From a virus (Duplodnaviria > Caudoviricetes): 64,000 bases of DNA. Position 1 is the first letter of the stretch; each line of letters opens with the position of its first letter. The notes under the pieces are model-generated. The model was not told where the DNA came from and did not search any database. It saw nothing but the letters and a program-made list of their open reading frames with translations. A program made the position numbers and the translations under genes. Shown here one piece after another: positions 1 through 61,840 of this stretch. The stretch lies in IMG/VR virus record IMGVR_UViG_3300021255_004000, positions 195,308 through 259,307 of that record; one strand, given 5' to 3'.

Positions 1-2
1 TT

Positions 3-119
3 CTTGGCGTTGTAACAACTTTAGTAACGACAGGAAAGGCACTTCAGGGTTTTGAAACAAAACACGATGACAAGCAGAAAGATGAAAAGGTCGAACCTGA
101 AGCAATAGAGGAGAAATAA
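3..119 (+). CDS. 3' end of a gene truncated by the window start
   Basis: Open frame LGVVTTLVTTGKALQGFETKHDDKQKDEKVEPEAIEEK* ending just before a hairpin terminator. Confidence 0.5.
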   Translation, partial: LGVVTTLVTTGKALQGFETKHDDKQKDEKVEPEAIEEK

Positions 120-121
120 TT

Positions 122-146
122 AAAGGCGGCAATTTGCCGCCTTATT
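122..146. terminator. bidirectional intrinsic terminator
   Basis: AAGGCGGCAA-T-TTGCCGCCTT hairpin between convergent genes. Confidence 0.75.
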
Positions 147-1199
147 TTATTTATTCTTTTTCTTAAACATTTGATATTCGGACCACCAACGATACCATTC
201 TTTGAACCGCTGTATAGGTGTTAATGGTCTCCAGCCACTTTGCATAATTTGATATAAGTCTTCACAAACAGGACAACGCTTTGCATTCTCAGGATGTGAC
301 TGATGCCATCCAGGTGTTATTACTTTTTCAAAATATTTTGGGTTGTCGCTGCTTGCATAGTACTCATCATCAACAAGCCAATTGTGTTTTGACTTACATC
401 TCCACCAATGTCCTTGTTCCTGATTGCTTCGATTGACTTCTTCCCAAGTACCGCGTACAAAAGGCTTTTCCCACATTTCATCAAATGATTTGTAAGTGCC
501 TTCAGGATAACCAAGTTGTTTAACTGCTGCTTCCCATTCTTCTTTGTTATAGAAAGTCAACATACTGTTTTCCCAATCTTCACAACTGGAATAGTCAATG
601 CCTTTGTAAGAAAAGTGGCGCATTACTTCAGGATCATCTTCAAACTTTCGAACATAGCCAATGTCAGGATTGCTTACCCACGAATAGTTGCAGGCTTTGC
701 ATTTCCAATCGTACATTTCAAGTTCTGGGTCCCAAATTGCTTTTGATACCAACTTTCTTTTGTTGATATATTTCCAGAGTTTCTTTGCTTCACGAGGATG
801 CAAATACTTTTCACATTTGTAAAACTCAACTTCTTTATTGCTTTTCGGACCAACATAAGTACAAATTGGAATAACGCCGTGTGGTGTCATAAATGACTCA
901 AACTTTATTTCACGAGTTACATAGCCAAAAAGACATTTGATACTGTAATGCTGACCTTCAATGTAAGGAACTTTTTGATTAACAATAAGATGTCGATCTT
1001 CTCCATACCAAATAAGAACATCAATAGTGCCATCTCTTAAAAGGCCACACTGAACAATGACATCTTTTTCAGAAAACATTTTGACTTGATGAATATGTTT
1101 GTTGCACCAAAAGTCAAAATGAAGCCATTCATTATCAACATAAAGTGATGGTTTATTCTTCATTGTTCTCTCCTGTAATTGACTTGTTATATTTTTCAA
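147..1199 (-). CDS. hypothetical protein (Cys/Trp-rich)
   Basis: 350 aa ORF with CxxC pairs; the true start may be the MKNKP Met after GGAGAG. Confidence 0.6.
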   Translation of the reverse strand: MKNITSQLQERTMKNKPSLYVDNEWLHFDFWCNKHIHQVKMFSEKDVIVQCGLLRDGTIDVLIWYGEDRHLIVNQKVPYIEGQHYSIKCLFGYVTREIKFESFMTPHGVIPICTYVGPKSNKEVEFYKCEKYLHPREAKKLWKYINKRKLVSKAIWDPELEMYDWKCKACNYSWVSNPDIGYVRKFEDDPEVMRHFSYKGIDYSSCEDWENSMLTFYNKEEWEAAVKQLGYPEGTYKSFDEMWEKPFVRGTWEEVNRSNQEQGHWWRCKSKHNWLVDDEYYASSDNPKYFEKVITPGWHQSHPENAKRCPVCEDLYQIMQSGWRPLTPIQRFKEWYRWWSEYQMFKKKNK

Positions 1200-1689
1200 T
1201 CCAAGGCTGCTTTACAATTTTAACACCCATCTTTTCAAGTACAGGATATGAAGAGTACAAGTCACTTTCCTGAATTACCCAACCTTCCTGCATCCAATAT
1301 GCAATAGTTTGAACAAAGTACTCACTTGCATAATGCTTAAGCAGCTGTTCAAATCTGTTCTTAAGATGTTGAGTGTACAACTTCCAAGGAAATACTGCAA
1401 CCATTGAAACACCTAAGTAAGGCGCTCTAAAAATCTTATTCCATTCGTCAACACATACATTACGAAAACTTTCATAAAGATCGTGATGTTTCCAGAATGC
1501 TTCAGGAACATAGCCTATTTCACAAATGTAATCATAGGCCTCAAGAAGTTCACCATAGGTGTTCTCATTCAAACCAATCAAAACACCAGTGATTCTTCTT
1601 CCTTCTTTTCGTGAGTTAACTAATACTGCATTAACGCGGTTGTGTAGCCCGCTTGGATTCTTATGTGCCATAACATGTGCGGGAATCAA
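1153..1689 (-). CDS. hypothetical protein
   Basis: 178 aa ORF in the co-directional cluster. Confidence 0.55.
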   Translation of the reverse strand: MIPAHVMAHKNPSGLHNRVNAVLVNSRKEGRRITGVLIGLNENTYGELLEAYDYICEIGYVPEAFWKHHDLYESFRNVCVDEWNKIFRAPYLGVSMVAVFPWKLYTQHLKNRFEQLLKHYASEYFVQTIAYWMQEGWVIQESDLYSSYPVLEKMGVKIVKQPWIEKYNKSITGENNEE

Positions 1690-1717
1690 GTTCCCGCTCT
1701 ATTCAAAAGCTTTGTGA

Positions 1718-2383
1718 TTACTTAGGCTGTTTCGGAATGGCCTCGCAATACTCCAAAGCATCAACTGGGGTTATTGCCATCTTTTGCAGTGCAGCGATAC
1801 CCATCGCGTGACTTGATAAATCCCAATAATGGTTAAGTACACGGTCAACAAATACTCTGCAATCTTCATTTTCATCAAGGTTCTGTTTGTTTCTGTTCTG
1901 AAATCTTTCCAGCAAGTCAGGCACTTTGACGCAAAAGATTGACATATGATTATTGAAGTAAGCAGGGTTTGGGTTGAAGGTACCAAGAAGTCCGACTCTT
2001 TCTTTGTACGGTCCGAGGTCAATCCCTGTCTCCTCTTCAAACTCGCGAATGGCGGCGTTCTTTCTAACCTCTTTAAGAGCGTCGTCATAACCTTCAAGCG
2101 GAAGATCTTTCATTTCAGAGTCTTCCACTGTACCGCAAGGGAACTCAATAGTTTTTGCTTCTGCACCCCAGCGTGTCTGTTCAACAAAAACGCAAACAGG
2201 ATTTTCTCTTGAACTTGCGTCTGCAGCTATCAACATACACCAGTCGTTACAATTCAAACCAACAGGCTTGAAGTTTGGAACATTGTCAAACTCCTTCTCT
2301 ACAACGGTAAAGACGGGTGTTTTCATTTTTGTAGTTTCTTTAGTCTTTTTTAGCATTTTTCGCATTCTCCAAAATTGTACCAA
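1718..2383 (-). CDS. Nudix hydrolase (ADP-ribose pyrophosphatase-like)
   Basis: EFPCGTVE...AAIREFEEETG Nudix box with an insertion; NPNPAY and LDENE motifs typical of NudF-type ADPRases; the start is probably downstream of the called Met. Confidence 0.8.
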   Translation of the reverse strand: MVQFWRMRKMLKKTKETTKMKTPVFTVVEKEFDNVPNFKPVGLNCNDWCMLIAADASSRENPVCVFVEQTRWGAEAKTIEFPCGTVEDSEMKDLPLEGYDDALKEVRKNAAIREFEEETGIDLGPYKERVGLLGTFNPNPAYFNNHMSIFCVKVPDLLERFQNRNKQNLDENEDCRVFVDRVLNHYWDLSSHAMGIAALQKMAITPVDALEYCEAIPKQPK

Positions 2384-2843
2384 GCAGTTTTACATCGTCA
2401 ATCTTTTTGAGGTCTTTTCCAACATCCTCAGTTGCAAGTAAACGAGCGCTTTCATATTTCTTATTGTACTTATAAGCTTCTATGTAATCTTGAACTGTTG
2501 GATATTCAAGAGCTTCATACTTTGTAATCATTTCTTGATTGTTTTTGATAAAGCTTTTTGCATCAAATACCATAGTTGCAAAAGCCAATGCAAATATAAA
2601 ACCAAACAAGCAAACAATGCATCTTATTGTGAAAAATGTCCAATACCAGAGATGCTGCCACCATTCATCTGCATAGCCCATTACTAATGCATCACGCAAC
2701 TTTCGAATGATTCCATCAGATTTTGTTTTATCTGACCAATAAACTCTTTCAAAAATGAAAGCAATCAAATGATGGATTCCAATCAACGCCAGACCAGGGA
2801 TAATCAGGAAACAAAAAACCCCGATAATCAAACTTGTATTCAT
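2340..2843 (-). CDS. hypothetical membrane protein
   Basis: Two hydrophobic segments; GAGG RBS. Confidence 0.6.
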   Translation of the reverse strand: MNTSLIIGVFCFLIIPGLALIGIHHLIAFIFERVYWSDKTKSDGIIRKLRDALVMGYADEWWQHLWYWTFFTIRCIVCLFGFIFALAFATMVFDAKSFIKNNQEMITKYEALEYPTVQDYIEAYKYNKKYESARLLATEDVGKDLKKIDDVKLLGTILENAKNAKKD

Positions 2844-2854
2844 TTAGCCACCTC

Positions 2855-3412
2855 TTAAAGTTTGTTGTACCAGTCCGCGTCGTCCAAGTACATTTCCATC
2901 AATTCAGATATTAACTTGTTGCGAACTTTTGAAGAACTTGCTTCCAAGAAATCTTTTCCAATGTACAATTCCTCGCAAGGAACAACTTTTACAAGGTCAT
3001 CTTTGCTGTTTCCGCGCTGGACAACCATCAGAGTTGCCATAAGGAGAATGTCTTCATAGCGGAACCAAGTTGGAAAGTTTTTGTAGGAGTCTTCGCCGAT
3101 GATAAGATATAATTCATCATTAGGATACTGTTCTTTGAAGTACTGAACTGTGTTGATTGTACGCCACTTGCTGTCTTTATCTTTTTCAAGGCTGTCAATT
3201 ACAATGTTTCCAGGCGCATTTGAAATCATCTTTGTAATGATTGCAACCTTTTCATCGAAAGTAAACAACTTTCTTGAGTCAGGTCGATAGTAATCACAAA
3301 TCGTTGGTACGATGATTACCTTGTCAAGTTTCTTTGCAGCTTCAACTGCGATTTTCAAATGTCCCTGGTGGAACGGGTCAAATGTACCACCAAAAATTCC
3401 AATCTTTGCCAT
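2855..3412 (-). CDS. nadD: nicotinate-nucleotide adenylyltransferase
   Basis: GIFGGTFDPFHQGH (HxGH), IIGEDS, SSSKVR motifs. Confidence 0.9.
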   Translation of the reverse strand: MAKIGIFGGTFDPFHQGHLKIAVEAAKKLDKVIIVPTICDYYRPDSRKLFTFDEKVAIITKMISNAPGNIVIDSLEKDKDSKWRTINTVQYFKEQYPNDELYLIIGEDSYKNFPTWFRYEDILLMATLMVVQRGNSKDDLVKVVPCEELYIGKDFLEASSSKVRNKLISELMEMYLDDADWYNKL

Positions 3413-3610
3413 TTACTTTGCTCCTTTTGGATATCTGAACAACCAATCAGCACCGCCATCCATAAAGATTGACATTGTGTCGATTTCAAATCCTCGTTTC
3501 TTTATTTCGTTGTATTCTTCTTCAGTCAAACGACCACGGTAAGAACCGTAGGCAGGATAATGTTCAACTGCATAAACCAACGCTTTTGTCAATTCATCTC
3601 GAAGTTTCAT
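3413..3610 (-). CDS. hypothetical protein
   Basis: 65 aa; GGAGG upstream; abuts nadD. Confidence 0.55.
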   Translation of the reverse strand: MKLRDELTKALVYAVEHYPAYGSYRGRLTEEEYNEIKKRGFEIDTMSIFMDGGADWLFRYPKGAK

Positions 3611-3625
3611 TATCCTGCCTCCGAC

Positions 3626-4933
3626 TTATTTCTCGTAAGTCATACGCCAGTCAATTTCCTTGTGCAGTCTTTCGATTGCTTCAGGATTGCGGCACATATT
3701 CTTTCCAGGTGCATCAGAAAGTTTTGCAACATCCAAGCCGTTTACGATTGCAACCTTGCATACGATATTCAAAGCTTCAATTCCCTGAGGACCTGACCAA
3801 TCAGTTCCGATACCGAATGCAACCTTTGCCTTGCCTTTGAAGTACTTATTGATTTCAGTTGCCTTCTGAAGATTGAGACCGTCACTGAACATCAGAGTTT
3901 TTGTAAGAGGGTCAATTCCCAAGCTCTTGTAATGGGCAATCATTTTGTCACCCCAAGCGTAAGGATCTCCAGAGTCGTGGCGTACACCGCTGAACAAAGT
4001 TGCAAATGTTTTGCGGAAGTCCTTCAAGAAAACATCTGTTCCGATTGTGTCAGTTAAGGCGATACCGTTCATTGTTCCGTATTCTTTAACCCAAGCATCA
4101 AGTGCGAACCAGTTGCTGTAAGCAGGGTTGTGGTAGAGGTGTCCCTGGCCGACTGTCATAATGAACTCGTGAGCCATTGTACCAACGGCGGTAACACCGT
4201 ACTTCATTGCAAGATACATATTTGATGTACCGATGAAGCCCTGGATAGGTCCGATTGCATTGTGCTTTTTCTCTTCGACAAGGCGGCCAATCAACCAATC
4301 CTGAAGTTCAAAAGAAACGCGGCGGCGGGCACCAAACTCTGAGAAGATGCCAGGTGCAAAAATGCCTTCGCGCATAAAGCGGAGCTTTTCTTCAGTCTTT
4401 TCTTTGAATTCTTTTGCAAGCTTTTCGTAATCATAGTGATTGCGGTAGTATGTTTCTGCGGCGATTTCGAGAACAGGAATTTCGTAATCTGAGATTTTCC
4501 ACTGAACACCTTTTGTGTGAATTGCGAGTCCTGAGATAGGATCATCACCGATTTCAAAGTCTTCAAAATGAGGCTTCCAATCGCGTTCAACTTCAATAAA
4601 GTTGTTGTGAATCCAAGGACGGGTTGCAGGATCTCCAAGGAAAGCGAGTTCCTCTTCTGTGTAACGAAGTGCGCAGTAAGCGCGGATCTGATTTGTAATT
4701 TCTTCACGGTCAGCAGCAGTGTACTTTTCGTGAGATGCAGCATCCCCGACATTGCGAGCCTTGAAGTCCCAAGTTGCGTGATCACCACTGAACTGATGCA
4801 AGTAAGCCTGTTTCATTGACTTCTTGTACTGATCTGTATCAAGCGGTGACTTGACCATAGGCGGATATTTCAAATTAAACGCCTTCATAACAACTGACTC
4901 ATCGTCAGTCAACTTACCATTGATTTCCCACAT
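3626..4933 (-). CDS. pncB: nicotinate phosphoribosyltransferase
   Basis: LDTDQYK, EFGARRR, GTSN, GTMAHE, ALTDT, GVRHDSGDP, FGIGT, KLSDAPGK motifs. Confidence 0.93.
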   Translation of the reverse strand: MWEINGKLTDDESVVMKAFNLKYPPMVKSPLDTDQYKKSMKQAYLHQFSGDHATWDFKARNVGDAASHEKYTAADREEITNQIRAYCALRYTEEELAFLGDPATRPWIHNNFIEVERDWKPHFEDFEIGDDPISGLAIHTKGVQWKISDYEIPVLEIAAETYYRNHYDYEKLAKEFKEKTEEKLRFMREGIFAPGIFSEFGARRRVSFELQDWLIGRLVEEKKHNAIGPIQGFIGTSNMYLAMKYGVTAVGTMAHEFIMTVGQGHLYHNPAYSNWFALDAWVKEYGTMNGIALTDTIGTDVFLKDFRKTFATLFSGVRHDSGDPYAWGDKMIAHYKSLGIDPLTKTLMFSDGLNLQKATEINKYFKGKAKVAFGIGTDWSGPQGIEALNIVCKVAIVNGLDVAKLSDAPGKNMCRNPEAIERLHKEIDWRMTYEK

Positions 4934-4950
4934 ATAGGAATACCTCCAAA

Positions 4951-5172
4951 TTATTTGTATCTTGGTTCGTTCATTACGAACAACTGTTTTCTAAATTGAT
5001 TTAAGACAACTTCTCTTGCTTCATCATTCAAGCCATAAAGCAATGAGCCTGCTTTTTTAGTGCACCAGTCATCAATAAAGTCTTCTTTTTCTTCAACGGA
5101 GTTTACAACATCGAGAAGTTCATCTCGATCTGAACCATTGTAATCTTCATCCCAATAGATGTAAAATTCCAT
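4951..5172 (-). CDS. hypothetical protein
   Basis: 73 aa; AGGAGG RBS. Confidence 0.6.
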   Translation of the reverse strand: MEFYIYWDEDYNGSDRDELLDVVNSVEEKEDFIDDWCTKKAGSLLYGLNDEAREVVLNQFRKQLFVMNEPRYK

Positions 5173-5183
5173 TTTAGGCCTCC

Positions 5184-5435
5184 TTAGAAAATTCTTATTG
5201 TTTTTGACAAGTCAAAAGCCAAAACTTCATTTCGAACTGAGTATGATGAACCATCCTGAGTATCAGCTTCTACAGAATAGTTTCCATAGCCTGCCTCGAT
5301 CATTTCATTCAAAAAGTCGCGCAATTCTGTTACAGTCAATTCAGACTTTTCAGAAACACCTGAAATGTTGTTTGCATATACTTTTTCATCACCTATTGTT
5401 TCATAAGTCCATTTTGATGTTTCTTTCTTCAACAT
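5184..5435 (-). CDS. hypothetical protein
   Basis: 83 aa; first gene after an early-type promoter; AGGAG RBS. Confidence 0.6.
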   Translation of the reverse strand: MLKKETSKWTYETIGDEKVYANNISGVSEKSELTVTELRDFLNEMIEAGYGNYSVEADTQDGSSYSVRNEVLAFDLSKTIRIF

Positions 5436-5469
5436 AATTTGCTCCTTTTGTTTAGGTTTTTACAAATAT

Positions 5470-5509
5470 AATATAAAAGAAAACTTGCGGGAGTTCAAAA
5501 ACTCCCGCA
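5470..5509 (-). promoter_or_regulatory. sigma70-like (class E) promoter overlapped by a terminator-like hairpin
   Basis: TTGAAC-17bp-TATATT; hairpin TGCGGGAGTT/AACTCCCGCA (5486-5509) just after the nadE stop. Confidence 0.8.
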
Positions 5510-5520
5510 TATTTTATGAA

Positions 5521-6267
5521 TTATTTTTCTGGGTCAAAAACATCGAAGACGACAAGTTTCTTTGCTGTGTTCGGGTGATTGTGCATTCTGTCAATCATTT
5601 GCTTTGTTTCAAAATCTTTAGGCGGAATTCCATAACGGATGTACCTGTCAAGTGTATCATAAGAAAAGCCCAGGTTGTCTTCGTCGGTTTTGCCGCACAT
5701 TCCATCAGAAGGAACTTTGTGAGTCCACTTCTCGCTGATGCCAAGGTAATCTCCCAAAGCGACAACTTCAGTTTTTGTCAACTTTGCAAGAGGAGAGAAG
5801 TCGCCAGTTGCATCGCCCCACTTTGTGCTGTAACCAACATAATCTTCAGAGAGGTTGCAAGTGTTTACAACGCGGCCATTAACCGCAGCAGCAATTCCAT
5901 ACAATGTTGCCATACGAAGGCGGGCAGGAGTGTTTGTAGTAAAAACTTTACATTCATTCAAGTCTTTACCAATGTTGATTGCATCGAACAGAGCGTTATA
6001 TGCAGTACCAATGTTTACTGTAATAGGCTCAACCCCAAACTCTTTACAAATGTCGATACTGTCCTGAATGTCTGCCTGTGTACCATTCGGCATAAGAACA
6101 GGAACAACACGATCTTTACCAAGGTATTTGATACCAAGCTTCAAGCAAACTGTGGAATCTTTTCCACCACTTACACCGATAACCATCGGCGAATCTTTTC
6201 CGTTTTTCTCAAACCAATCTTTGAACCACTTTTCAAGTTTAGGCTCAAAATCTTTAGGATCCAACAT
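5521..6267 (-). CDS. nadE: NH3-dependent NAD+ synthetase
   Basis: GVSGGKDS, NTPARLRMATLY, NLSEDYVGYSTKWGD, PSDGM...TDEDNLG; no glutaminase domain. Confidence 0.93.
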   Translation of the reverse strand: MLDPKDFEPKLEKWFKDWFEKNGKDSPMVIGVSGGKDSTVCLKLGIKYLGKDRVVPVLMPNGTQADIQDSIDICKEFGVEPITVNIGTAYNALFDAINIGKDLNECKVFTTNTPARLRMATLYGIAAAVNGRVVNTCNLSEDYVGYSTKWGDATGDFSPLAKLTKTEVVALGDYLGISEKWTHKVPSDGMCGKTDEDNLGFSYDTLDRYIRYGIPPKDFETKQMIDRMHNHPNTAKKLVVFDVFDPEK

Positions 6268-6471
6268 TTAATGACCTCCAAATCCAATCGTAGGGATTAC
6301 ATCATAGCATCTTACAATATAACCATTTTTGCGAAGTTCAGCAGCAACTGCAATCATTGCGTCTTCGTTTTCTGTAATGCCTTGACATACAGTGTTGCCG
6401 TCTTTATCACGAGCGACAACTCTGTACTTTGTTACTGCAATACTCATTAGCGAATGTTGCACTGGCAGCAT
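6268..6471 (-). CDS. hypothetical protein
   Basis: Small ORF coupled between pncA and nadE. Confidence 0.5.
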   Translation of the reverse strand: MLPVQHSLMSIAVTKYRVVARDKDGNTVCQGITENEDAMIAVAAELRKNGYIVRCYDVIPTIGFGGH

Positions 6472-6956
6472 TCCATAACTTTCAATGCAGCCTCGTGGCT
6501 CTCCTTTGTAAGTCCGGCGCAGCAGTCAGCAATAACTGTTACTTCAACGCCTTCGATTGCCTTAAGAGCAAGCGCATTACTGACAACGCAGATGTCGGTA
6601 CAAGTTCCGCAGATAACAACTTCATCGCCTTCTTTGACATATTCTGTCCAGTTGTCAAAACCGAAGTGAGTCTTGTCAATGAAGAGAGTGTTTTCATCAG
6701 TCTCTTCCATAAGTTCAGGAACAACCTGCCAGCCTTCAGTGTCTTTTACGCAGTGCTTTACAGGAAGATGCTTTCCTTCGCCTGTTTCCATATAATTTTC
6801 ACCGTGTGTATCACGAGTGAAAATGATGTTTGCTTTTTCAGCCTTTGCTGCCTGAACCTCTGCTTTAATGCGAGGAATGATTGCAACTGCATCTTTGTTT
6901 GCAAGAGCTCCTGTGCAGAAGTCATTCTGCATATCAACAACAACGAAATGTTTCAT
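6447..6956 (-). CDS. pncA: nicotinamidase (isochorismatase family)
   Basis: VVVDMQNDFCTGAL, TRDTH, HCV, GTCTDICV; located in the NAD gene cluster. Confidence 0.88.
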   Translation of the reverse strand: MKHFVVVDMQNDFCTGALANKDAVAIIPRIKAEVQAAKAEKANIIFTRDTHGENYMETGEGKHLPVKHCVKDTEGWQVVPELMEETDENTLFIDKTHFGFDNWTEYVKEGDEVVICGTCTDICVVSNALALKAIEGVEVTVIADCCAGLTKESHEAALKVMECCQCNIR

Positions 6957-7525
6957 TATTTACCTCCAATGATTTCATTCAGTGTTTTTGGTCCCCACTC
7001 CATAGCAGGGCACATAATACCAACATTGTACATTTTGACTTCGTGGCCGACAACATCTTCGTAATCTTTCTTCCACTTTTCAATCATATCACAGTCGTGC
7101 GGATTTGTATGCACGTGACCGTAAAGGTGAACAGTATGACCGTGATAAACACCATCGAACATAAAGATCGGATAGTGTGAAAGAATTACAGTGTTGCCTG
7201 CGTTGTCGATATGTTTGTGGTAACCTTCGTACACATCAACAAACTGTCTGCGAAGTTCTTCGTTCTTCCACAACTTATAGTCGTGGTTGCCTGTAACCCA
7301 ATGCTTTTTGCCGCGAAGGCGAGCAATCAAGCAGCGTGTTTCATAAGGATTTGTCCAAGAAATATCACCAAGAATCCAAACATCGTCTTCATCTGAAACG
7401 CGTTCATTCCAAATACGAATGATTGCTTCGTTCATTTCGTTAATGTCTTTCCAAGGACGATTGTCAAAATTGATTGCATTTGCGTGTGAGAGATGCAAAT
7501 CTGAAATATAAAACTCTTTACCCAT
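6956..7525 (-). CDS. calcineurin-like metallophosphoesterase
   Basis: SDLH, LGD, GNHD, SHYP, GHVH motifs. Confidence 0.88.
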   Translation of the reverse strand: MGKEFYISDLHLSHANAINFDNRPWKDINEMNEAIIRIWNERVSDEDDVWILGDISWTNPYETRCLIARLRGKKHWVTGNHDYKLWKNEELRRQFVDVYEGYHKHIDNAGNTVILSHYPIFMFDGVYHGHTVHLYGHVHTNPHDCDMIEKWKKDYEDVVGHEVKMYNVGIMCPAMEWGPKTLNEIIGGK

Positions 7526-7540
7526 AATTGTATATTAACC

Positions 7541-7816
7541 TCAGTACTCTTTCAGCTTTTCTTCCAATGCAGATTTTGCTTTCAATTCTTCAAAGTTGTC
7601 AGGTGTAATAACAACACAATGAATGCAGTGGTCAAAGCCTTCAACTTTCTTATCAAAGCAATGTCTGTTGCCTGACTTAATCTGCTTCTTTGTTACGAAA
7701 CAGCGATGTTTTTCGCAATAGCAGGCAAGGTTTTCTTTGTACCCAATCCCGTTGTTTAATGTCAACACATAATCTTTTTTGTATTCAGGATTAAACTTAA
7801 GATCGTTAAAGTCCAT
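7541..7816 (-). CDS. hypothetical protein (Cys/His-rich)
   Basis: 91 aa; AGGAGG RBS. Confidence 0.55.
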   Translation of the reverse strand: MDFNDLKFNPEYKKDYVLTLNNGIGYKENLACYCEKHRCFVTKKQIKSGNRHCFDKKVEGFDHCIHCVVITPDNFEELKAKSALEEKLKEY

Positions 7817-7818
7817 TT

Positions 7819-8280
7819 TTAGTCCTCCTTTATCAGATTGTAGCCGCCGTCAACCCAAGTAATGTTTCCATCAACTCTTGAAAGTCCCTGTGCGCCGTCA
7901 ATGTCATATACATAATCGACCAATTTGTCAAGGTCGAATGCATTTCTTGGAAAGTTGATGAAACCATATTCATCAGTAAGCTTTTCAACAATTTCGTTAT
8001 CAGAGAGATCAGAGAATGTATCACTGTCTTCGATACGGAAGTCGTTGATGTAAACCTCATCGAAGAAGTTGATTAAGCCGCCGTTGTCAGCAACAAACTT
8101 GTTCAAGCTTTCATCAGAGTAATCATTTTCAAAAAGCTCTCTGATATCTTTGCGAGCTGCTTCCTCAAGTTCGTCATCATCGTAGCATTTGTAAGTGTCC
8201 CCGTTGATAGTGAAAGTTGTATCATCGATCTGCTCGATGTCACCTTCATATTGATTCTTTAGGGCTTCAAGCTTATCCAT
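7819..8280 (-). CDS. highly acidic early protein
   Basis: About 42 D/E versus 13 K/R in 153 aa; first gene after a class E promoter. Confidence 0.65.
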   Translation of the reverse strand: MDKLEALKNQYEGDIEQIDDTTFTINGDTYKCYDDDELEEAARKDIRELFENDYSDESLNKFVADNGGLINFFDEVYINDFRIEDSDTFSDLSDNEIVEKLTDEYGFINFPRNAFDLDKLVDYVYDIDGAQGLSRVDGNITWVDGGYNLIKED

Positions 8281-8310
8281 AGTTTCCTCCTTTGAGTTTG
8301 TTACAGTAAT

Positions 8311-8339
8311 AATATAAAAGACTTTAACTCAAAGTTCAA
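8311..8339 (-). promoter_or_regulatory. class E promoter
   Basis: TTGAAC-17bp-TATATT. Confidence 0.8.
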
Positions 8340-8716
8340 TAAAAATCTGCAACTTCTTCAATTTCCCAAGTATTATCATCAATGTCAATTCTTATAATAA
8401 AATGCAACTTGTCAGTTGACATTTCATCTGTCAAATTATAATCATATACATAAGGTCGGCTGTCCCAATCAAGAAGGTACATACCTACACTGTAATCGTG
8501 AACATTTTCATCAGAGTTTTTATGGAAACGAGTAACGATTCGCCAGCATTTATCGCCAACTTTCCATTCATTTACGCCTCTGTAATTTATTACATCAAAA
8601 TGTGTCTCAAGATCACTGAATGAAATGTTTGCTCCAAGATAATTGTTGATTGCGGAAAAGATTGCTGACTCATCTACGGAACGCCATAAAGTGTTTGAAG
8701 GTATTTCGCCTTTCAT
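8336..8716 (-). CDS. hypothetical protein
   Basis: 126 aa; resembles its upstream neighbour. Confidence 0.55.
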   Translation of the reverse strand: MKGEIPSNTLWRSVDESAIFSAINNYLGANISFSDLETHFDVINYRGVNEWKVGDKCWRIVTRFHKNSDENVHDYSVGMYLLDWDSRPYVYDYNLTDEMSTDKLHFIIRIDIDDNTWEIEEVADFY

Positions 8717-9096
8717 TCAAAAAATCTCCAAGTGTCGTCATCATAAAGAACAATCAAAACATCACTTCTGTCAATAACACCTTCATTCTTAAGTCTTGTT
8801 TCCAATATGTCAGGAGCGTTTTCAGACTTATAAAGATTGAAGAAAGCGTGAAACCTGTTATCGGTTCCACCAAGTGACGTGACAACTATAACCCAAACAA
8901 AGTTTTCATCTTCACTCCAAAGTCGAAAAAGATAGCAACCGTTGTTGAAGAAGTTGGAAGCATTCTTTCCAAGTTCAATGGACTTACCAAGATAGTCACT
9001 AATTGCTGCTATCATAAGATTATACATTTTACTAGTCAAAGATGGACACCTCCTTTCCATCAAAGTATGTTGGGTCAATGTCGAGAACTTTTTCAA
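8713..9096 (-). CDS. hypothetical protein
   Basis: The true start is likely later (TTG after AGGAGG near 9040). Confidence 0.5.
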   Translation of the reverse strand: MKKFSTLTQHTLMERRCPSLTSKMYNLMIAAISDYLGKSIELGKNASNFFNNGCYLFRLWSEDENFVWVIVVTSLGGTDNRFHAFFNLYKSENAPDILETRLKNEGVIDRSDVLIVLYDDDTWRFFE

Positions 9097-9188
9097 ACCA
9101 CTCTTTGAAGCCTTTGTAAGATGGATTGTGGAAGTTGGTTCTCATCCAACATTTGATTCTTAATGTCAGACGTTCTTCGTCAGTCATA

Positions 9189-9926
9189 TTACAGTCCCCA
9201 AGTCAGTTTCTTATTCGGATTGTTTGTACGAATTACAATAAGCTTTCTAGGTGACTTGTTGTTTACAGTTTCAGGCTCGATTGATGTTACAACAAAAGGA
9301 ACCATCCAAGTTTGATTCTGATACATTACAACATCTCCAATCTCAATAGGAACATTGTAACGATCTTTGTGAACGACAGCAGCAATCTTCTTTTTATAAA
9401 CATCTTCAGTCATCTTGATGTAGGCAGCAGATGTTTTGAAGTCATAGATGTCATAATTAAGATTCAGCAACTGATTGAAAACCAAACGAGCAACTTCATT
9501 GCTTTCCACATCGACATATGTGTAGTCATCTTCACTGAATGAGATCCACTTCATTGTAATTTTATCAACAGTGATGAAGTCATCTTCAGAGATTGTAAAT
9601 CTTCTTCCGCTCCAACTGTTATAAGAGTACTTCCCAGGCTCGCTATAATCTTCATAGAAGTCTTTCTTAGGAATGTAATCATTTCCTGATTTGTAAACTT
9701 TTACGCTGCTTTTTGAAAATGTGTACAAAATTGGCTTTTCATAATTTTCATCATACTTGCCGCCAAGGTCAATATCCAACTGATCTGGGCAACTTGGTAA
9801 GGCAAGATTTTCTCCAATGACTGAAGTTGTCCAGTACCTTACTTTGTCGCCGTTTGCTTTTTCCTGAGCAACACTAGTAAATGCTTTTGGGTCAATATAA
9901 ACTGCCTGTCTTATCATTTTTACCAC
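9189..9926 (-). CDS. hypothetical protein
   Basis: 245 aa; C-terminal D..G..I.IGD.V motif. Confidence 0.6.
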   Translation of the reverse strand: MVKMIRQAVYIDPKAFTSVAQEKANGDKVRYWTTSVIGENLALPSCPDQLDIDLGGKYDENYEKPILYTFSKSSVKVYKSGNDYIPKKDFYEDYSEPGKYSYNSWSGRRFTISEDDFITVDKITMKWISFSEDDYTYVDVESNEVARLVFNQLLNLNYDIYDFKTSAAYIKMTEDVYKKKIAAVVHKDRYNVPIEIGDVVMYQNQTWMVPFVVTSIEPETVNNKSPRKLIVIRTNNPNKKLTWGL

Positions 9927-10351
9927 TCCACTTTCATAAGTTCTGGGCCTTCATCTGCTCCGCAAACCCATCTTACTTTAAATCCTTTATCTTCAAAAGC
10001 TTTTGTCATAAAGTTTTCAAACTCTTCAACTTCGCTTTTTGTTGCTTTGTGTTTCCATATTTCTTGGAAATCAATTTCTGCGTTATTGTTTCCAAGATGA
10101 ACAGCTGTTGCAATTAGAGCTGACATCTTCTTAAAGGACCCTTTGCGAAATCTTTCCAAATCTTCCGCATGCATTTTGTCAATATGTTCTCTTGCTTCTG
10201 ATGCAGTAAACTGTTGGTTATCATACCTATGTTCAAGCAAGCTGACTAAACCAAGCGACGCAAAGAACAATAAAACTACTAAAATAATTATAATCATATT
10301 TGTAGGTGTAACCTCCATATTACCAATCGCCCAAGGCCAAATCATTGTCAA
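9920..10351 (-). CDS. hypothetical membrane-anchored protein
   Basis: Single N-terminal TM segment. Confidence 0.55.
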   Translation of the reverse strand: MTMIWPWAIGNMEVTPTNMIIIILVVLLFFASLGLVSLLEHRYDNQQFTASEAREHIDKMHAEDLERFRKGSFKKMSALIATAVHLGNNNAEIDFQEIWKHKATKSEVEEFENFMTKAFEDKGFKVRWVCGADEGPELMKVEW

Positions 10352-10614
10352 TCTCCTATCTTGGCGTTCGATGTCAATACAACATCAGGATTGTGCTCTT
10401 CAAGCGGCTGAATGAATGAAATGAAAACGCTTTCAGGAACATACCCAGTGTTGTCTTCAATCGCTTCCCTAATCACTGTCTTAAATGATTCCATTGTTTC
10501 CCAGGACATTTCAATATGATCACCAGAAGTTTCACTTTCAATTCTCAGATCTCCGTGGCCTACACGACCACCTGAAAGATAGAAAACATACGAAACATAA
10601 AACAGTTTCTTCAT
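10348..10614 (-). CDS. hypothetical protein
   Basis: 88 aa; coupled to neighbours. Confidence 0.55.
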   Translation of the reverse strand: MKKLFYVSYVFYLSGGRVGHGDLRIESETSGDHIEMSWETMESFKTVIREAIEDNTGYVPESVFISFIQPLEEHNPDVVLTSNAKIGD

Positions 10615-10615
10615 A

Positions 10616-11443
10616 TTAAGCCTCCATCATTTTGTAAAACTCTTCATATGTAATTGTTGCAATTCCGAGTTTCTCAGCCTTAACCATTTTTGCTGTTCCT
10701 GTTTCTGATGATACGAGGTATGAAAGTCCTTTCTTTACGCTTTCAACAGTTCCGCCAAGTTCAGCAACTTTTTCCTCGAGAAGTTTTCTTTTCTCTTCAG
10801 GCTTGAAGTCGTTTGAACCTGTGAAGCAGAATGAAAGCCCAGAAAACTTTCCACCTTCAACAACTTTTGCTTTATCTTCGATTGAAACAAGTTTGTAGCA
10901 TTTTTCAATGTCTTCTTTGTTTTCAGCAATAAGGCTGACAAGTTCTTTTGCAGAGTTTTCAGTCCAGCCGTAAACATTTGCAATTTCAGGAACAATGTTT
11001 AAGCCGTTTACAAGTTTCTGAAGATCAAAGCCTGCATCAACCAAAGACTGAATTGATCTTCGTCCATAACCATCAAGGTCAAATGATGCAAGGAAGTCAG
11101 CAGTTTTGAAAGGCTCTGCCATACGCTTTGCAAAGTTGCGGCGAATCTTTTCTGCATTTTTACCGCAAACATTGTCCAAAGAAGGACTGTTCAATTTTGT
11201 AAGGAATTCATAGTTTGATGTGATGTTTTCTGCTTCGACAAAATCCTTAATGATAGCAGGTCCGATCTCAAGGACATTCCAAATGTTTGTCAATTTTTGG
11301 ATTTTGTGAAGTACTTTCTGTTCACAGGTAGGATTCGGGCAAAAAAGAACACCCGATTCATTTATTTCGAGAGCTGTCCCGCATACAGGACAGATTGTAG
11401 GCATATTCCATTTATGTGATTTTGCGTATTCTGCGGCGTTCAT
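10616..11443 (-). CDS. NAD-dependent DNA ligase, C-terminal portion only (Zn finger, HhH, BRCT)
   Basis: PTICPVCGT...LFCPNPTC zinc finger, HhH-like LEIGP / DGYGRR / VYGWT, BRCT GLSFCFTG...KAEKLGI; no KxDG adenylation domain. Confidence 0.82.
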   Translation of the reverse strand: MNAAEYAKSHKWNMPTICPVCGTALEINESGVLFCPNPTCEQKVLHKIQKLTNIWNVLEIGPAIIKDFVEAENITSNYEFLTKLNSPSLDNVCGKNAEKIRRNFAKRMAEPFKTADFLASFDLDGYGRRSIQSLVDAGFDLQKLVNGLNIVPEIANVYGWTENSAKELVSLIAENKEDIEKCYKLVSIEDKAKVVEGGKFSGLSFCFTGSNDFKPEEKRKLLEEKVAELGGTVESVKKGLSYLVSSETGTAKMVKAEKLGIATITYEEFYKMMEA

Positions 11444-11473
11444 AAGTTCCTCCGTTGTTCAATTTACAAAAAT

Positions 11474-11502
11474 AATATAAAAGAACAACGGAGAAAGTTC
11501 AA
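11474..11502 (-). promoter_or_regulatory. class E promoter
   Basis: TTGAAC-17bp-TATATT. Confidence 0.8.
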
Positions 11503-11509
11503 AAATATT

Positions 11510-13312
11510 TTATGCTACTTTGAAATAATTACAAATTGCATCATTTACACTAGAAATAAGCGCAAGGTCTTCTGGTGTTGTTTGTGACTTGTCTGAAACA
11601 AAACATTTATATTTCAAGCATTTTGTAACGAAGAGAGTGAACATCATTCTCTTTTTAAGGCCTTTGTCCAAACCATTTTTGAATGCAGAAATAAGTCTTA
11701 TTACACAGTTGAAAGTATAATCAGCGCCTGGGCCATTAACATAATCGAGATATTCCTTAGTCAACTGATTGTATTCATCAAAAACTTTAATTAAGTTTCC
11801 ACCACCAACAACACCTTCTGTCAAAGCTTCCAAGGCAGACATTGCTTCACCACATTTTCCACCGAAGCCTTTATCACCAATTTCAAGTTCAAGTTGTCCA
11901 TCACCTTTTGTACCATCTGCTTTAATTGAACTCATTGATACCTTAAGACGAATACCTGGGATGCCATCAATCTTTGGCAAGTTGTCTTTATTGATTTGCA
12001 AATCGTGATAGCCTGCTTCAGTCAATGTAAAGAATGGACGAACTCTTGAATATGAAACATTTCCGTCTTTCTCTTTTCCAGGGAGAGCCTTTACAATATA
12101 AAGATCATCAATAGTTGTTTTATCTGAGAACTCTCCAGCGTAAACGCCAGCGACGTGACTTGTGTATTGAGAGAGTTTGTCATAAATCTTGAGTTCTGAG
12201 AATTTCACGTGTGCAGGACCTTTAGGAACTTTTTTCAATGAGATCGGCAAAATCCAACCCATAATTGTACAGATGTTCATATTGTAAATCAAAGACTGCT
12301 TTCTTTTTGAAAGTTGGTCTTCAGCAACATTGTCATCATCTGAAAGTAACTGCATTCTCAACATCTTAACTCTTTGTTTTCTTGTACCTGCTTTACCTTT
12401 AATAGCAGTAAAGTGATCATCATCTTTCAAGAAGTTGTCATACTCTGTTGTCTTAAATGAACCAGCACGGTTGTAAATCTTTTCGAGTTTTGACTCATCA
12501 TTTTCAGCATAAGCAGCAGCAGGAACTTCACCATATCTTAAAGCTTTATAAAGTTCGTCTTCGTGCTCACTGTCAACTAAGAAAATATCTGCAGGTTGAA
12601 CATTGTCTTTGTTGCTCAAACCATAAGAACGATCATCAAACAAAAATCTGAAGTCGTGTTTTCCAAGTGGCTTCAAAAACTCGTGAACAGGAATCCAATG
12701 TACATCTTTTGTTGCAGCTCTTGTATGCATCATACATTCTTTAATGATTGTATAATTTGAACAAGCAAGAATTGAGTTGTTCCACTCTTTGTTATATACA
12801 ACAGCATCAATAGTTGCTTGTGCAATAGGTACTGTTTTTGAAAGACCTTGATTATCAAAGTAATCAAGAAAGCCCTTAGTGCTTTTTGCTTTAATACTTA
12901 CATAAATATCTTCTTTACAGCAAGCAAGAGCAGTAAGTCCTTCCTGAACAGCTGTTATGCTGTTTGCCTCAAGGCCTGAGGCTTTGTCAGCTTTACAAAA
13001 TCCTTTCCAAACGCCCCATTCATTCTTTTCACCAATATCAACGCCAATGCTCTTAAGTAATTCACCAAGTTTATCAACTGCTTCAGGTGAAACAATGGTA
13101 GGGAGATTTTCTACTTCATCAACAATAGAACTTGCATCAATAATAACAGGTTCTGCGTCATCGCCATCTCTTGTATCAACATATCCTTTTTCAATTATGT
13201 TGTTTCTTAAAGTCACATAGTAAGCGCCTGAATGCTTAGTCAGCAACTCGCTTCTTTTAACGTGTTGCTCTTCAATCTTTATAAGATTTTCAAAAAATAA
13301 TTCCATTCCCAT
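11510..13312 (-). CDS. hypothetical late protein (possible virion internal protein)
   Basis: 600 aa; ACTAATT motif 12 nt upstream of the ATG; N-terminal LFFENL motif. Confidence 0.6.
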   Translation of the reverse strand: MGMELFFENLIKIEEQHVKRSELLTKHSGAYYVTLRNNIIEKGYVDTRDGDDAEPVIIDASSIVDEVENLPTIVSPEAVDKLGELLKSIGVDIGEKNEWGVWKGFCKADKASGLEANSITAVQEGLTALACCKEDIYVSIKAKSTKGFLDYFDNQGLSKTVPIAQATIDAVVYNKEWNNSILACSNYTIIKECMMHTRAATKDVHWIPVHEFLKPLGKHDFRFLFDDRSYGLSNKDNVQPADIFLVDSEHEDELYKALRYGEVPAAAYAENDESKLEKIYNRAGSFKTTEYDNFLKDDDHFTAIKGKAGTRKQRVKMLRMQLLSDDDNVAEDQLSKRKQSLIYNMNICTIMGWILPISLKKVPKGPAHVKFSELKIYDKLSQYTSHVAGVYAGEFSDKTTIDDLYIVKALPGKEKDGNVSYSRVRPFFTLTEAGYHDLQINKDNLPKIDGIPGIRLKVSMSSIKADGTKGDGQLELEIGDKGFGGKCGEAMSALEALTEGVVGGGNLIKVFDEYNQLTKEYLDYVNGPGADYTFNCVIRLISAFKNGLDKGLKKRMMFTLFVTKCLKYKCFVSDKSQTTPEDLALISSVNDAICNYFKVA

Positions 13313-13324
13313 AATGTAATTAGT

Positions 13325-13353
13325 AAAAAAGGACAGGTTTTTGCCTGTCCTTT
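13325..13353 (-). terminator. intrinsic terminator
   Basis: AAAGGACAGG-loop-CCTGTCCTTT followed by a T-run on the minus strand. Confidence 0.75.
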
Positions 13354-13387
13354 ATAACTTTTATATTCCTTTATAACTTTTTATAAC

Positions 13388-14533
13388 TTAATATGCACCG
13401 AAGTCAATGTGCTTTGAAACTGTCAAGCATTCAAGCTTGAGATTGTGTTTCTTACGGAATGTCTGATCTCCAGCAGAAATCCAAATGTCTCCGTCTTCAT
13501 CCTTGAACTGTACCCAGTAAGGATCATTTACATCAACATCTGGGTAGAAGCCCTGCCATCTGTCAATCTGAATGTTACCTGTCGGAATAAGTGCAGGCTT
13601 GAGTGAAACTTCCCTAAACTTAAACTTAATGTAGCAGTAATCATTGAGCCAGCCTTTGCAAAGTCCTTTTGATGTGTTCCAAGTATCAGTTACTGTGAAC
13701 TGGTGTCCGTCAAGTGAGAATGTTGCAGCAATATCAATTTCCAACTTGCTTTCGCTGATGTTCATAATCTGAGCGATGTCTTCAACACTCATAGTTGGGA
13801 ATGAGTTCATTTCTTTTACGATAGACTGAACGATGTCAAGCGACTGTACACGAGAACCACGCAAAACATCAACAACATCTTTAATGTCATCCCATCTTGA
13901 CTTAATCAAATTGTCTTTGCAGTACTCTTCGATTGCAGCTTCTGAAATGTTTTCATAGCGGAAATGATAGCGAATACGACCTGGGCGTGAAATCAGATTT
14001 TCATTGAGAGAGAAAACATCGTTCACTGAAAGCAAGTACAAATTGTGTGAAAGTGATTTTGTACCGTCAAGCACTGAAAGCAATGATTCCTGTGGAGTCA
14101 TACCTTCATCACCGTTCTTTTTGAACATCTTTTCAAATTCATCGAGAACAACAACACATTCTTTCAAGTCACTCAAAACATTAGGAAGCAAGTCTGTGTA
14201 CTGATCTACAACGATGACAGGTCTTGTCTTAATGTAATGTTCAACAATAAGACGGATTGTCAATGATTTACCTAAACCTTTATTTCCAGAGAATAAAGCT
14301 CCAACATTTTTGTCTTTTTCGATGTCGTAAGACTCCCAAACGTGCTTTGCAAAACTTTCTGCATCGCCGTAGATTTTACCGTGAGAAGTTTTGTAATCTT
14401 CCATCTTATAGAAGTAAGGCGCGTTGGTCATTGGACGGTAGCCGATGCCCCAAGCTCCAGCAGGAAGTTGGTCTACTGTTTTGAGAGCCTCACCTTCAAA
14501 ATAAGTTGCCTCATTGTTGGCTATGATGTACAT
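13388..14533 (-). CDS. AAA+ ATPase
   Basis: Walker A GNKGLGKS, Walker B VVLDEFEK, SRPGRIRY arginine finger. Confidence 0.85.
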   Translation of the reverse strand: MYIIANNEATYFEGEALKTVDQLPAGAWGIGYRPMTNAPYFYKMEDYKTSHGKIYGDAESFAKHVWESYDIEKDKNVGALFSGNKGLGKSLTIRLIVEHYIKTRPVIVVDQYTDLLPNVLSDLKECVVVLDEFEKMFKKNGDEGMTPQESLLSVLDGTKSLSHNLYLLSVNDVFSLNENLISRPGRIRYHFRYENISEAAIEEYCKDNLIKSRWDDIKDVVDVLRGSRVQSLDIVQSIVKEMNSFPTMSVEDIAQIMNISESKLEIDIAATFSLDGHQFTVTDTWNTSKGLCKGWLNDYCYIKFKFREVSLKPALIPTGNIQIDRWQGFYPDVDVNDPYWVQFKDEDGDIWISAGDQTFRKKHNLKLECLTVSKHIDFGAY

Positions 14534-17439: not shown

Positions 17440-18291
17440 TTATTTAAGAAGCGCAAGTACTGTTGATGACTGACTGTTTGCATTTGCCAACATTGCAGTT
17501 GACGCCTGCTGAAGAATTGCGTTCTTAGTATAATCAACCATTGCTGTTGCCATATCTTCATCACGGATAACGCTTTCTGAAGATGTAAGGTTTTCAGCAG
17601 CAACATCAATACCTTTCTGTGTAAGTTCCATTCTGTTCTGAACTGCACCAAGATCAGCACGCTGCTTGTTTACAACTTTCAATGCTTCGTCGACTGTTGC
17701 GATAGTTGAGTTTGCTTCATCAGCAGATGCGATAGAAATTGTGTTACCTGCTTCTCCCTGGATATCTTTCAAACCAAGTGCAGCAGCTGTTGCAGATTCG
17801 ATGTTGATGCTAATACGCTGGTCAGCATTTGCGCCAATCTGGAATGTCATTTCAGTTCCTGCTTCTTTTCCAAAGCGGCCTGTCAACATATTCATACCAT
17901 TGAACTGTGCAGAACTTGCAATGCGGTCAACTTCTGAAACAAGCTGAGAAACTTCAACCTGAATCTGCATACGGTCTTCATCACTGTAAAGTCCATTGCT
18001 TGACTGAACAGCAAGTTCACGAATACGCTGCAAGATGTCAGAAGTTTCCTGAAGGTAACCTTCTGTTGTCTGAATGAAGCTTACGCCGTTTGAAACATTT
18101 TTTGATGCCTGATTAAGACCACGAATCTGTGAACGCATCTTTTCAGAGATTGCAAGGCCGGCAGCATCGTCACCAGCACGATTGATTTTCTCTCCACTTG
18201 AGAGCTTTTCCATTGAGCTTTTCAATGCAGCAGTGTTAAGTCCTTCCTGTCTTGCTGCAAATATTGAACTCATATTATGATTTATCACCAT
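17440..18291 (-). CDS. flaB: flagellin, spirochete periplasmic flagellar core protein FlaB
   Basis: [84 protein letters not shown]; the 283 aa length lacking D2/D3 is typical of Treponema FlaB. Confidence 0.96.
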
Positions 18292-18297
18292 ATTGTA

Positions 18298-18351
18298 AGC
18301 CCCTCCTATAGGCTACATAAGGTGGCTTCCTTGCCACCTTATTATATTAAC
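18298..18351 (-). promoter_or_regulatory. flaB leader: GTTAATATA promoter plus two GGA-loop hairpins
   Basis: AAGGTGGC-AAGGAA-GCCACCTT and AGCC-TATAGGAGG-GGCT. Confidence 0.7.
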
Positions 18352-19410: not shown

Positions 19411-19442
19411 AATTTACTCCTTGTCGTGTTGTTTACAAAAAT

Positions 19443-19471
19443 AATATAAAAGATGCTCGTGCAAAGTTCAA
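19443..19471 (-). promoter_or_regulatory. class E promoter
   Basis: TTGAAC-17bp-TATATT. Confidence 0.8.
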
Positions 19472-28690: not shown

Positions 28691-28709
28691 TTGAACAATT
28701 TACAACAAT

Positions 28710-28750
28710 AATATAAAAGAAGTTGTCGAGAAGTTCAAAACTTCTCGACA
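28710..28750 (-). promoter_or_regulatory. class E promoter overlapped by a terminator-like hairpin
   Basis: TTGAAC-17bp-TATATT; hairpin TGTCGAGAAGT/ACTTCTCGACA at 28724-28750. Confidence 0.8.
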
Positions 28751-29807: not shown

Positions 29808-29846
29808 AGGATTGTCCTCCGTTTAATTGTTTTGTTTTACAAGAAT

Positions 29847-29875
29847 AATATAAAAGACAATTAACAGAAGTTCAA
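29847..29875 (-). promoter_or_regulatory. class E promoter
   Basis: TTGAAC-17bp-TATATT. Confidence 0.8.
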
Positions 29876-46543: not shown

Positions 46544-46551
46544 ACAAAAAT

Positions 46552-61830: not shown

Positions 61831-61840
61831 TTACAAAAAT

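Follow-up and report, generated by a model that had tools for sequence, protein, structure and literature searches.

The stretch of DNA analyzed here, 64,000 nucleotides of a Caudoviricetes virus (positions 195,308 to 259,307 of IMG/VR record IMGVR_UViG_3300021255_004000; hereafter the window), carries a cluster of genes for the salvage of nicotinamide adenine dinucleotide (NAD+). All listed open reading frames (ORFs) between positions 147 and 13312 of the window lie on the minus strand, and the cluster itself occupies 1718–7525, where genes for a phosphoesterase, PncA, NadE, PncB, NadD and a Nudix hydrolase are interspersed with small ORFs. We interpret the cluster as a phage-borne Preiss-Handler (deamidating) NAD+ salvage module with a partner predicted to handle ADP-ribose, a reading to which we assign a probability of roughly 0.8. 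An earlier sequence-only reading had named five of these genes (pncA, pncB, nadD, nadE and the Nudix gene), and all five were confirmed, on the minus strand, with family-level matches and catalytic residues kept. The limits of the called genes agree on three contigs encoding identical PncB, and are as follows:

6956–7525, minus strand: calcineurin-like metallophosphoesterase, 189 aa (phrog_547, E 3e-35; PDB 1xm7, E 9e-9)
6447–6956, minus strand: PncA nicotinamidase, 169 aa (PF00857, E 5e-33)
6268–6447, minus strand: small ORF, 59 aa (from the gene calls on the identical contigs; without a family match)
5521–6267, minus strand: NadE, 248 aa (PF02540, E 5e-47; TIGR00552, 155 bits; phrog_11189, E 2.5e-52)
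5184–5435 and 4951–5172, minus strand: two small ORFs, 83 and 73 aa (ORF list and gene calls)
3626–4933, minus strand: PncB, 435 aa (PF04095, E 2e-61, and PF17767; TIGR01514, NF003704)
3413–3610, minus strand: small ORF, 65 aa (ORF list and gene calls)
2855–3412, minus strand: NadD, 185 aa (PF01467, E 3e-19; TIGR00482)
2340–2843, minus strand: 167-aa ORF for a probable membrane protein whose N-terminal segment is hydrophobic (without a Pfam or PHROG match)
1718–2356, minus strand: Nudix hydrolase, 212 rather than 221 aa according to the gene call (PF00293, E 3.5e-6)

The enzymology proposed in the sequence-only reading, from nicotinamide through nicotinate, nicotinate mononucleotide (NaMN) and nicotinate adenine dinucleotide (NaAD) to NAD+, is borne out by the protein families and the catalytic residues. 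The solved structures nearest to PncA are nicotinamidases, the best match being that of P. horikoshii (1ilw, E 1e-16), with which the conserved triad D8/K95/C123 and metal site D49/H51/H68 are aligned. PncB exceeds the model cut-offs (TIGR01514, 343 versus 269.55 bits; NF003704, 387 bits), and the phosphorylatable H255 of its GTMAHE motif is invariant in alignment A1; it is predicted to be an E. coli-type nicotinate phosphoribosyltransferase, forming NaMN from nicotinate and phosphoribosyl pyrophosphate (PRPP) in an ATP-coupled reaction. Its match to the PHROG Nampt family is weak (E 5e-11). NadD is a predicted NadD-type adenylyltransferase (NaMN + ATP to NaAD): it has the HxGH motif at residues 15–18 (H15, H18) and an ISSTxxR-like SSSKVR at 159–164, and its top ten NCBIfam matches are all NadD models; NadR models match it weakly, through the common HIGH motif. 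NadE scores 155 bits against the TIGR00552 cut-off of 63.65 bits and carries an SGGKDS PP-loop at residue 33. Since it has no glutaminase domain, it would be ammonia-dependent (NaAD + NH3 + ATP to NAD+).

The Nudix protein keeps the REFEEETG box, and its residues R104, E105, E108 and E109 do not vary among 33 homologues. Its AlphaFold2 model (predicted local distance difference test score, 92) was searched with Foldseek, and the 50 best matches listed are ADP-ribose pyrophosphatases (ADPRases) and nucleoside diphosphate (NDP)-sugar hydrolases, with template modelling scores of 0.5–0.69 and best E values of 3e-10 to 1e-8. They include structures from B. methanolicus, the Bdellovibrio NDPSase with ADP-ribose, NUDT5, NudF of E. 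coli and Klebsiella, YffH and the M. tuberculosis ADPRase. Judged from the model, the label ADPRase-like holds for the fold, including the N-terminal beta domain, and the protein most likely splits ADP-ribose into AMP and ribose-5-phosphate. A role as an NrtR-type regulator was considered and rejected: Pfam detects no winged-helix domain (NrtR_WHD) in the window's Nudix protein, which retains its catalytic glutamates and has enzymes as its closest matches in fold.

Transcription signals divide the cluster into two units. The window contains eight exact copies of the 12-mer CTTTTATATTAT, where chance would give 0.9, and every copy has the same architecture, namely TTGAAC, a spacer of 17 nt, TATATT and then a TTGTAA-like stretch. 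In six of the eight cases, the element lies approximately 30–45 nt upstream of a Shine-Dalgarno sequence and a start codon. By its sequence, TTGAAC-N17-TATATT should represent a phage promoter class with a host-like sigma70 consensus, readable by the host polymerase. The copies and the features associated with them are:

8309–8339, minus strand: putative promoter P1 (TTGAAC-N17-TATATT at 8311–8339), heading the ORFs at 7819 and 7541, the phosphoesterase gene, pncA, the 59-aa ORF and nadE
7819–8280 and 7541–7816, minus strand: two ORFs, 153 and 91 aa, at the head of the first unit (without a Pfam match)
5486–5509, minus strand: terminator-like hairpin with a 10-bp stem and a T-rich tail, directly 3' of nadE
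5468–5498, minus strand: putative promoter P2 (TTGAAC-N17-TATATT at 5470–5498), heading the ORFs at 5184 and 4951, pncB, the ORF at 3413, nadD, the ORF at 2340, the Nudix gene and the ORFs at 1153 and 147
1153–1671 and 147–1163, minus strand: two ORFs, 172 and 338 aa, closing the second unit
123–143, minus strand: terminator-like hairpin with which the second unit ends
11472–11502, minus strand: third promoter copy (TTGAAC-N17-TATATT at 11474–11502), heading the C-terminal half of a ligase gene (10616–11443)
19441–19452, 28708–28719, 29845–29856, 46550–46561 and 61839–61850, minus strand: the other five copies

Two of the eight sigma70-like copies precede the two halves of the cluster, and to this extent the sequence-only reading, which had placed it behind early-type promoters, holds; the early timing in that claim is deduced from the promoter type, and transcription of the cluster is probably early. 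The ORFs of 59, 65, 73, 83, 167, 172 and 338 aa gave no lead in Pfam, NCBIfam, PHROG or ESM-Atlas. A different repeated element, the octamer GTTAATAT, is present in 17 copies in the window versus 2.6 expected, often just upstream of start codons (for example, at 7532–7539, 2908–2915 and 18344–18351, minus strand), with one copy located 6 nt before the ATG of the phosphoesterase gene. It may represent a second promoter class.

Fourteen sequencing runs of sheep and cattle gut samples, all recorded as RNA, contain part of the window, and assembled contigs of four of these runs, each from a different study, were aligned to positions 1–14000. The contigs span 1765–8291 at 90–99% identity. Their ends recur at 8288–8291 in three studies, 13–16 nt downstream of the predicted P1 start, and further ends fall at 5443–5459 and 11449–11454; overall, the ends lie 4–24 nt downstream of the three predicted starts, and one contig ends at 5490, within the nadE terminator. 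Contigs derived from DNA would be expected to run through the promoter points, so the recurring ends suggest transcripts, and relatives of the phage probably transcribe the module in the rumen. The stretches left uncovered by RNA (8407–8873 and most of 11676–14000) may reflect strain divergence, and depth is not interpretable.

The window derives from a rumen jumbo phage with a genome of roughly 295 kb. PncB proteins with 95–99% identity to that of the window are encoded by many contigs in ENA and Logan, up to 293–298 kb in length, and identical PncB is encoded in sheep-rumen assemblies; a megablast search of the region against deposited phages gave no match. A full-length flagellin encoded at 17440–18291 (minus strand) shares 66–71% identity with the FlaB proteins of many Treponema from rumen and gut, which points to Treponema as the host lineage, and the host is probably a member of this genus. 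The best match of the flagellin (79%) lies on JAZNWZ010000130.1 (L090/L172), a contig of 306,108 bp binned in a metagenome-assembled genome (MAG) of 'Candidatus Fimenecus' (Clostridia). This contig carries the same six genes, with identities of 75% for PncB, 75% for PncA, 57% for NadD, 56% for NadE, 51% for the phosphoesterase and 50% for the Nudix protein, and its content suggests that it is most likely a near-complete related jumbo phage that was assigned to a bacterial MAG by mistake. An IMG/VR relative of 61.5 kb (L001/L010; estimated to be 20% complete) also has the six genes, with their order partly changed and other genes inserted. Across L010 and L172, the six genes are kept at 48–81% identity, whereas the ORFs located between the enzyme genes of the window are conserved in neither relative, suggesting that selection acts on the enzymes. 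The phage PncB is approximately 48–55% identical to PncB of other phage contigs and closer to these than to the PncB of Treponema, and is therefore not a recent copy of the host gene. No PRPP synthetase was found in the cluster or on the 306-kb contig; the sequence-only reading had likewise seen none in the window.

The NAD-dependent ligase of these phages is encoded in two parts. The window holds the C-terminal half with the Zn-finger, HhH and BRCT regions (10616–11443, minus strand), which has its own promoter (the third copy above), whereas the adenylation half is a separate gene of approximately 372 aa located about 17 kb from pncB in the relatives (loci G008:C130:262474-263145 and G002:C1:35505-36188). 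All three PncB-bearing phage records tested encode a LigA adenylation domain.

On the host side, NadA, an enzyme of de novo NAD synthesis, was not found in four named Treponema genomes, one of them complete. Within the T. bryantii genus, 61 genomes were sampled, many of them incomplete MAGs, and 6 had NadA, so that most of the genus probably does without the de novo route and relies on salvage. T. bryantii carries PncA (47% identical to the phage protein), NadE and an NAPRTase-family protein, and a rumen Treponema MAG (L171) contains a pncB-nadE-nadD operon with products 44, 49 and 35% identical to those of the phage, respectively. As judged from these homologues, the phage probably duplicates the main NAD+ route of its host. 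Defence-type SIR2_2 domains, mostly in large proteins, are encoded in 13 of the 61 genomes of the host genus, and NADase-type immunity is a plausible pressure on the phage.

To assess how widespread the gene set is, we searched deposited phages, among which PncB is rare (14 records), and IMG/VR, where 285 stretches encode a PncB relative. Loci were counted in the best 80 of these 285 stretches, and the counts are upper estimates, because bacterial NrtR operons need filtering. At least 57 of the 80 loci encode all four enzymes in a span of 6 kb, in several orders; the order pncA-DUF5662-pncB-nadD-nadE accounts for 38 loci. A representative locus is surrounded by phage-like genes (phrog_1735, methyltransferases, HNH endonuclease, RNA ligase and polynucleotide kinase). 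Five of the 80 loci look bacterial, with NrtR (Nudix plus winged helix) followed by nadD, pncA, pncB and glutamine-dependent nadE (L029, L034, L041, L012 and L016). Such bacterial Preiss-Handler operons, for example nrtR-nadD-pncA-pncB-nadE, comprise the same four families and the same chemistry; the proteins of the window differ from those of Treponema (35–49% identity), and the cluster has no NrtR and contains phage promoters and ORFs between the genes.

The DUF5662 gene (PF18907) lies no more than 6 kb from pncB in 45 of the 80 loci, and in 39 it falls between the pncA and pncB genes (for example, L065:9424-9987, L047:9369-9986 and L021:12929-13537). It is absent from the cluster in the window, and DUF5662 has no solved relative by sequence. 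The 167-aa membrane ORF was tried as a DUF5662 relative and rejected on comparison.

Depletion of NAD+ is among the commonest abortive mechanisms, and three phage pathways that rebuild it (NAD+ reconstitution pathways, NARPs) have been demonstrated, none of them by the deamidating route on which most bacteria themselves draw. The sequence-only reading described NARP1 and NARP2 accurately and proposed the cluster as a candidate for the third such system, a rank already taken by NARP3, a PnuC-like transporter with a NadR-like enzyme published in Sci Adv in August 2026 (PMC13464706). NARP3 imports nicotinamide riboside and proceeds through kinase and adenylyltransferase steps, in contrast to the deamidating route predicted here (PMC13464706), and no PnuC or NadR kinase match was obtained among the 20 ORFs scanned at 147–11443. 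NARP2 (NadV/NatV of KVP40, that is, Nampt and a bifunctional Nmnat/Nudix) likewise draws on nicotinamide, PRPP and ATP, includes an ADPRase Nudix and is found in large phages, but it comprises two amidated steps via nicotinamide mononucleotide, whereas the route of the window would comprise four, via nicotinate, NaMN and NaAD. The cluster does not have the Nampt/NadV and Nmnat pair of NARP2: its phosphoribosyltransferase is a PncB equivalog (TIGR01514), its adenylyltransferase is of the NadD type and its Nudix gene is separate rather than fused to Nmnat. Furthermore, NARP2 has been shown to counter NADase defences, whereas the module described here is known from its genes. NARP1 (Adps and Namat) likewise starts from the products of NAD+ cleavage, but it pyrophosphorylates ADP-ribose and couples the product to nicotinamide, whereas the system of the window would at most hydrolyse ADP-ribose; no PRPS-like or Nampt-like gene was found in the cluster with Pfam or NCBIfam, and the PRPS-like and Nampt-like proteins of phage phAss-1, considered below, have no tblastn match in the window. 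Two comparative surveys describe only the amidated route, and the literature searched, including a review from November 2026, contains no experiment that pits the deamidating route against NADase systems.

Deamidating gene sets in phages have nevertheless been reported. The 174 'NAD-jumbo phages', gut jumbo phages with complete salvage or 'Preiss handler' pathways, were described in Microbiome in 2024, including the pncB-nadD-nadE cluster of Kuafu_71 and the phage-host complementarity of Kuafu_19, with pncA mentioned in the discussion (PMC11662467). The Kuafu-type clusters resemble that of the window in belonging to large gut or rumen phages, in the clustering of PncB, NadD and NadE, in the accompanying enzymes that consume NAD, among them the NAD-dependent ligase, and in being documented by bioinformatics only (PMC11662467). 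They differ in that the cluster has three genes, pncA appears in passing and no Nudix partner is described there, whereas the window has both PncA and Nudix; their predicted hosts are mainly Bacteroidota, whereas the host here is probably Treponema (PMC11662467). The gene set is not new, and its proposed function is plausible; what is added here to PMC11662467 is the anatomy of promoters and terminators and the metatranscriptome support.

Counterparts also exist in deposited phages of other hosts. The cultivated Sinorhizobium jumbo phage Phosso (PV764938) encodes NadE, PncB, a MutT-like Nudix protein, an adenylyltransferase and a PncA homologue, annotated as 'hydrolase', within approximately 5.6 kb and with small ORFs in between. 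Agrobacterium phage Atu_ph07 (MF403008) encodes a PncA homologue, an annotated ADP-ribose pyrophosphatase and PncB within approximately 6 kb, with NadE elsewhere. Both differ from the window in their alphaproteobacterial hosts, in protein identities of 30–32% and in Nudix proteins that are not BLAST-similar.

According to the reading that we favour, host RNA polymerase would transcribe the genes from the two sigma70-like promoters, probably early. PncA would deamidate nicotinamide to nicotinate and ammonia, PncB would join nicotinate to host-made PRPP to give NaMN, NadD would adenylate NaMN to NaAD, and the ammonia-dependent NadE would amidate NaAD to NAD+. The Nudix protein would split free ADP-ribose into AMP and ribose-5-phosphate, clearing a reactive by-product and returning carbon towards PRPP, and the net effect would be a greater capacity of the cell to keep or rebuild its NAD+ pool over a long infection. 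The gene set, the catalytic residues, their conservation in relatives and the RNA consistent with the promoters are observed, and from these we infer which activities the enzymes have, what the Nudix protein acts on, when the genes are expressed and which selective benefit weighs most. Several points weigh against this reading. The activities of the cluster proteins are predictions. PncA scores 43.6 bits against the 174-bit cut-off of the E. coli PncA equivalog, and its assignment therefore rests on the conserved residues and the nearest structures; NadD, at 111.6 bits, is 0.8 bit under the TIGR00482 cut-off of 112.45. The Nudix box is interrupted by a lineage-specific insertion of 16 residues, which most homologues lack. 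Classical ADPRases have a downstream loop with a proline and the catalytic glutamate (the 'SPG...E' motif). In the window's Nudix protein, this loop reads FNPNPAYFNN, with the proline kept and an asparagine at the position of the glutamate, and is followed by an invariant D161/E164/D165/C166 cluster. The lack of the classical loop glutamate, together with the insertion in the box, makes the Nudix substrate uncertain. In addition, with no PRPP synthetase at hand, PRPP would have to come from the host, and the RNA evidence consists of assembled contigs of relatives, 90–99% identical, in which carry-over of DNA is possible.

Some of these points could also be taken to mean that the genes do not form one pathway at all, with the PncA-like protein acting on another amide, the Nudix protein decapping NAD-RNA, degrading a signalling nucleotide or serving as an NrtR-like factor, and the clustering being incidental. 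Both PncA and the Nudix protein are below equivalog thresholds, the catalytic loop of the latter is unlike that of ADPRases, the genes of relatives occupy as much as 12 kb and are interrupted by others, and NrtR-type Nudix regulators do adjoin some pncA-pncB operons in IMG/VR. However, the nicotinamidase-specific DxH...H metal site and the D-K-C triad are intact, the four enzymes recur together in several orders in most of the IMG/VR loci counted, and the Nudix protein, with its glutamates, its ADPRase or NDP-sugar hydrolase fold and no winged helix, does not resemble a regulator. We consider this alternative very unlikely. As to what the salvage module is for, we see little difference in likelihood between counter-defence and ordinary cofactor supply as the main benefit, and the two are mutually compatible. 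If the former, the module would constitute a fourth, deamidating reconstitution route that rebuilds NAD+ from the nicotinamide set free by SIR2, TIR or SEFIR NADases and disposes of ADP-ribose, so that abortive infection fails. There is a precedent in the KVP40-type Nampt/Nmnat pair, which was first read as metabolic and later recognized as NARP2 (10.1101/2024.02.11.579819; PMC13728456). The host-type, probably early promoters in front of the module point the same way, as do the SIR2_2 proteins of the host genus and the repeated company of an ADPRase-like Nudix protein, seen here, in L010/L172, in Phosso and near PncB in Atu_ph07. However, the literature searched holds no experiment on this route, the host and its defence systems are predicted at the genus level, and four steps cost more ATP than NARP2 and need host PRPP. 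E. coli has the same four enzymes, and yet its NAD+ is depleted by NADase effectors; the speed of the route is thus not sufficient in itself, and a phage copy would have to raise the flux substantially. The suggestion of the sequence-only reading that NADases might not cut NaMN and NaAD found no support in the present analysis. On balance, counter-defence is a real possibility that we rate somewhat short of even odds.

The same rating applies to the supply of cofactor for the phage's own NAD-dependent ligase and metabolism during a long jumbo infection of a niacin-dependent host. This is the interpretation given for the 'NAD-jumbo phages' (PMC11662467), and it agrees with the position of the C-terminal ligase half behind the third copy of the same promoter, with the adenylation half on the relatives, with the scarcity of NadA in the host genus and with the PncA, PncB, NadD and NadE homologues carried by Treponema genomes. 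However, the absence of NadA is uncertain for individual genomes, since many of those sampled are incomplete, and cofactor supply leaves the ADPRase-like Nudix partner unexplained. The broader proposition that the four enzymes and the Nudix protein form a widespread counter-defence route of gut and rumen phages, enabling infection of niacin-dependent hosts with SIR2 or TIR NADases, is one that we regard as rather doubtful and advance tentatively. The cluster and its relatives provide material for testing deamidating counter-defence versus phage-borne cofactor supply. The present case alone changes nothing that is known; it adds a likely spirochete host that itself depends on this route, evidence of transcription and an ADP-ribose-hydrolase partner that recurs.

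The phosphoesterase gene, whose stop codon overlaps the start of pncA by one base, also adjoins pncA in L010 and L172. The motifs DxH, GD, GNHD and H are all intact, and its relatives carry PF00149/PF12850. It was considered as a counterpart of the phosphatase that counters aRES and rejected as a match by family: according to the methods headings of the preprint, the latter was sought as a Macro-domain protein, and the window's protein belongs to a common calcineurin-like phage family.

A different arrangement was observed in two phage contigs from the human gut, phAss-1 (OQ749652.1, 96860-101298; L005) and MT835544.1 (10996-16294; L006), where PncA, a divergent PRPS-like protein, a Nampt-like protein and NadE are encoded in a cluster. 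No NadD-type adenylyltransferase was found within the 24–29 kb around these clusters. They may represent a deamidated variant of NARP1, in which ADP-ribose pyrophosphate and nicotinate would yield NaAD, followed by the NadE step, with no adenylyltransferase needed; a nicotinamidase beside the NARP1-like pair would make sense only if the transferase uses nicotinate.

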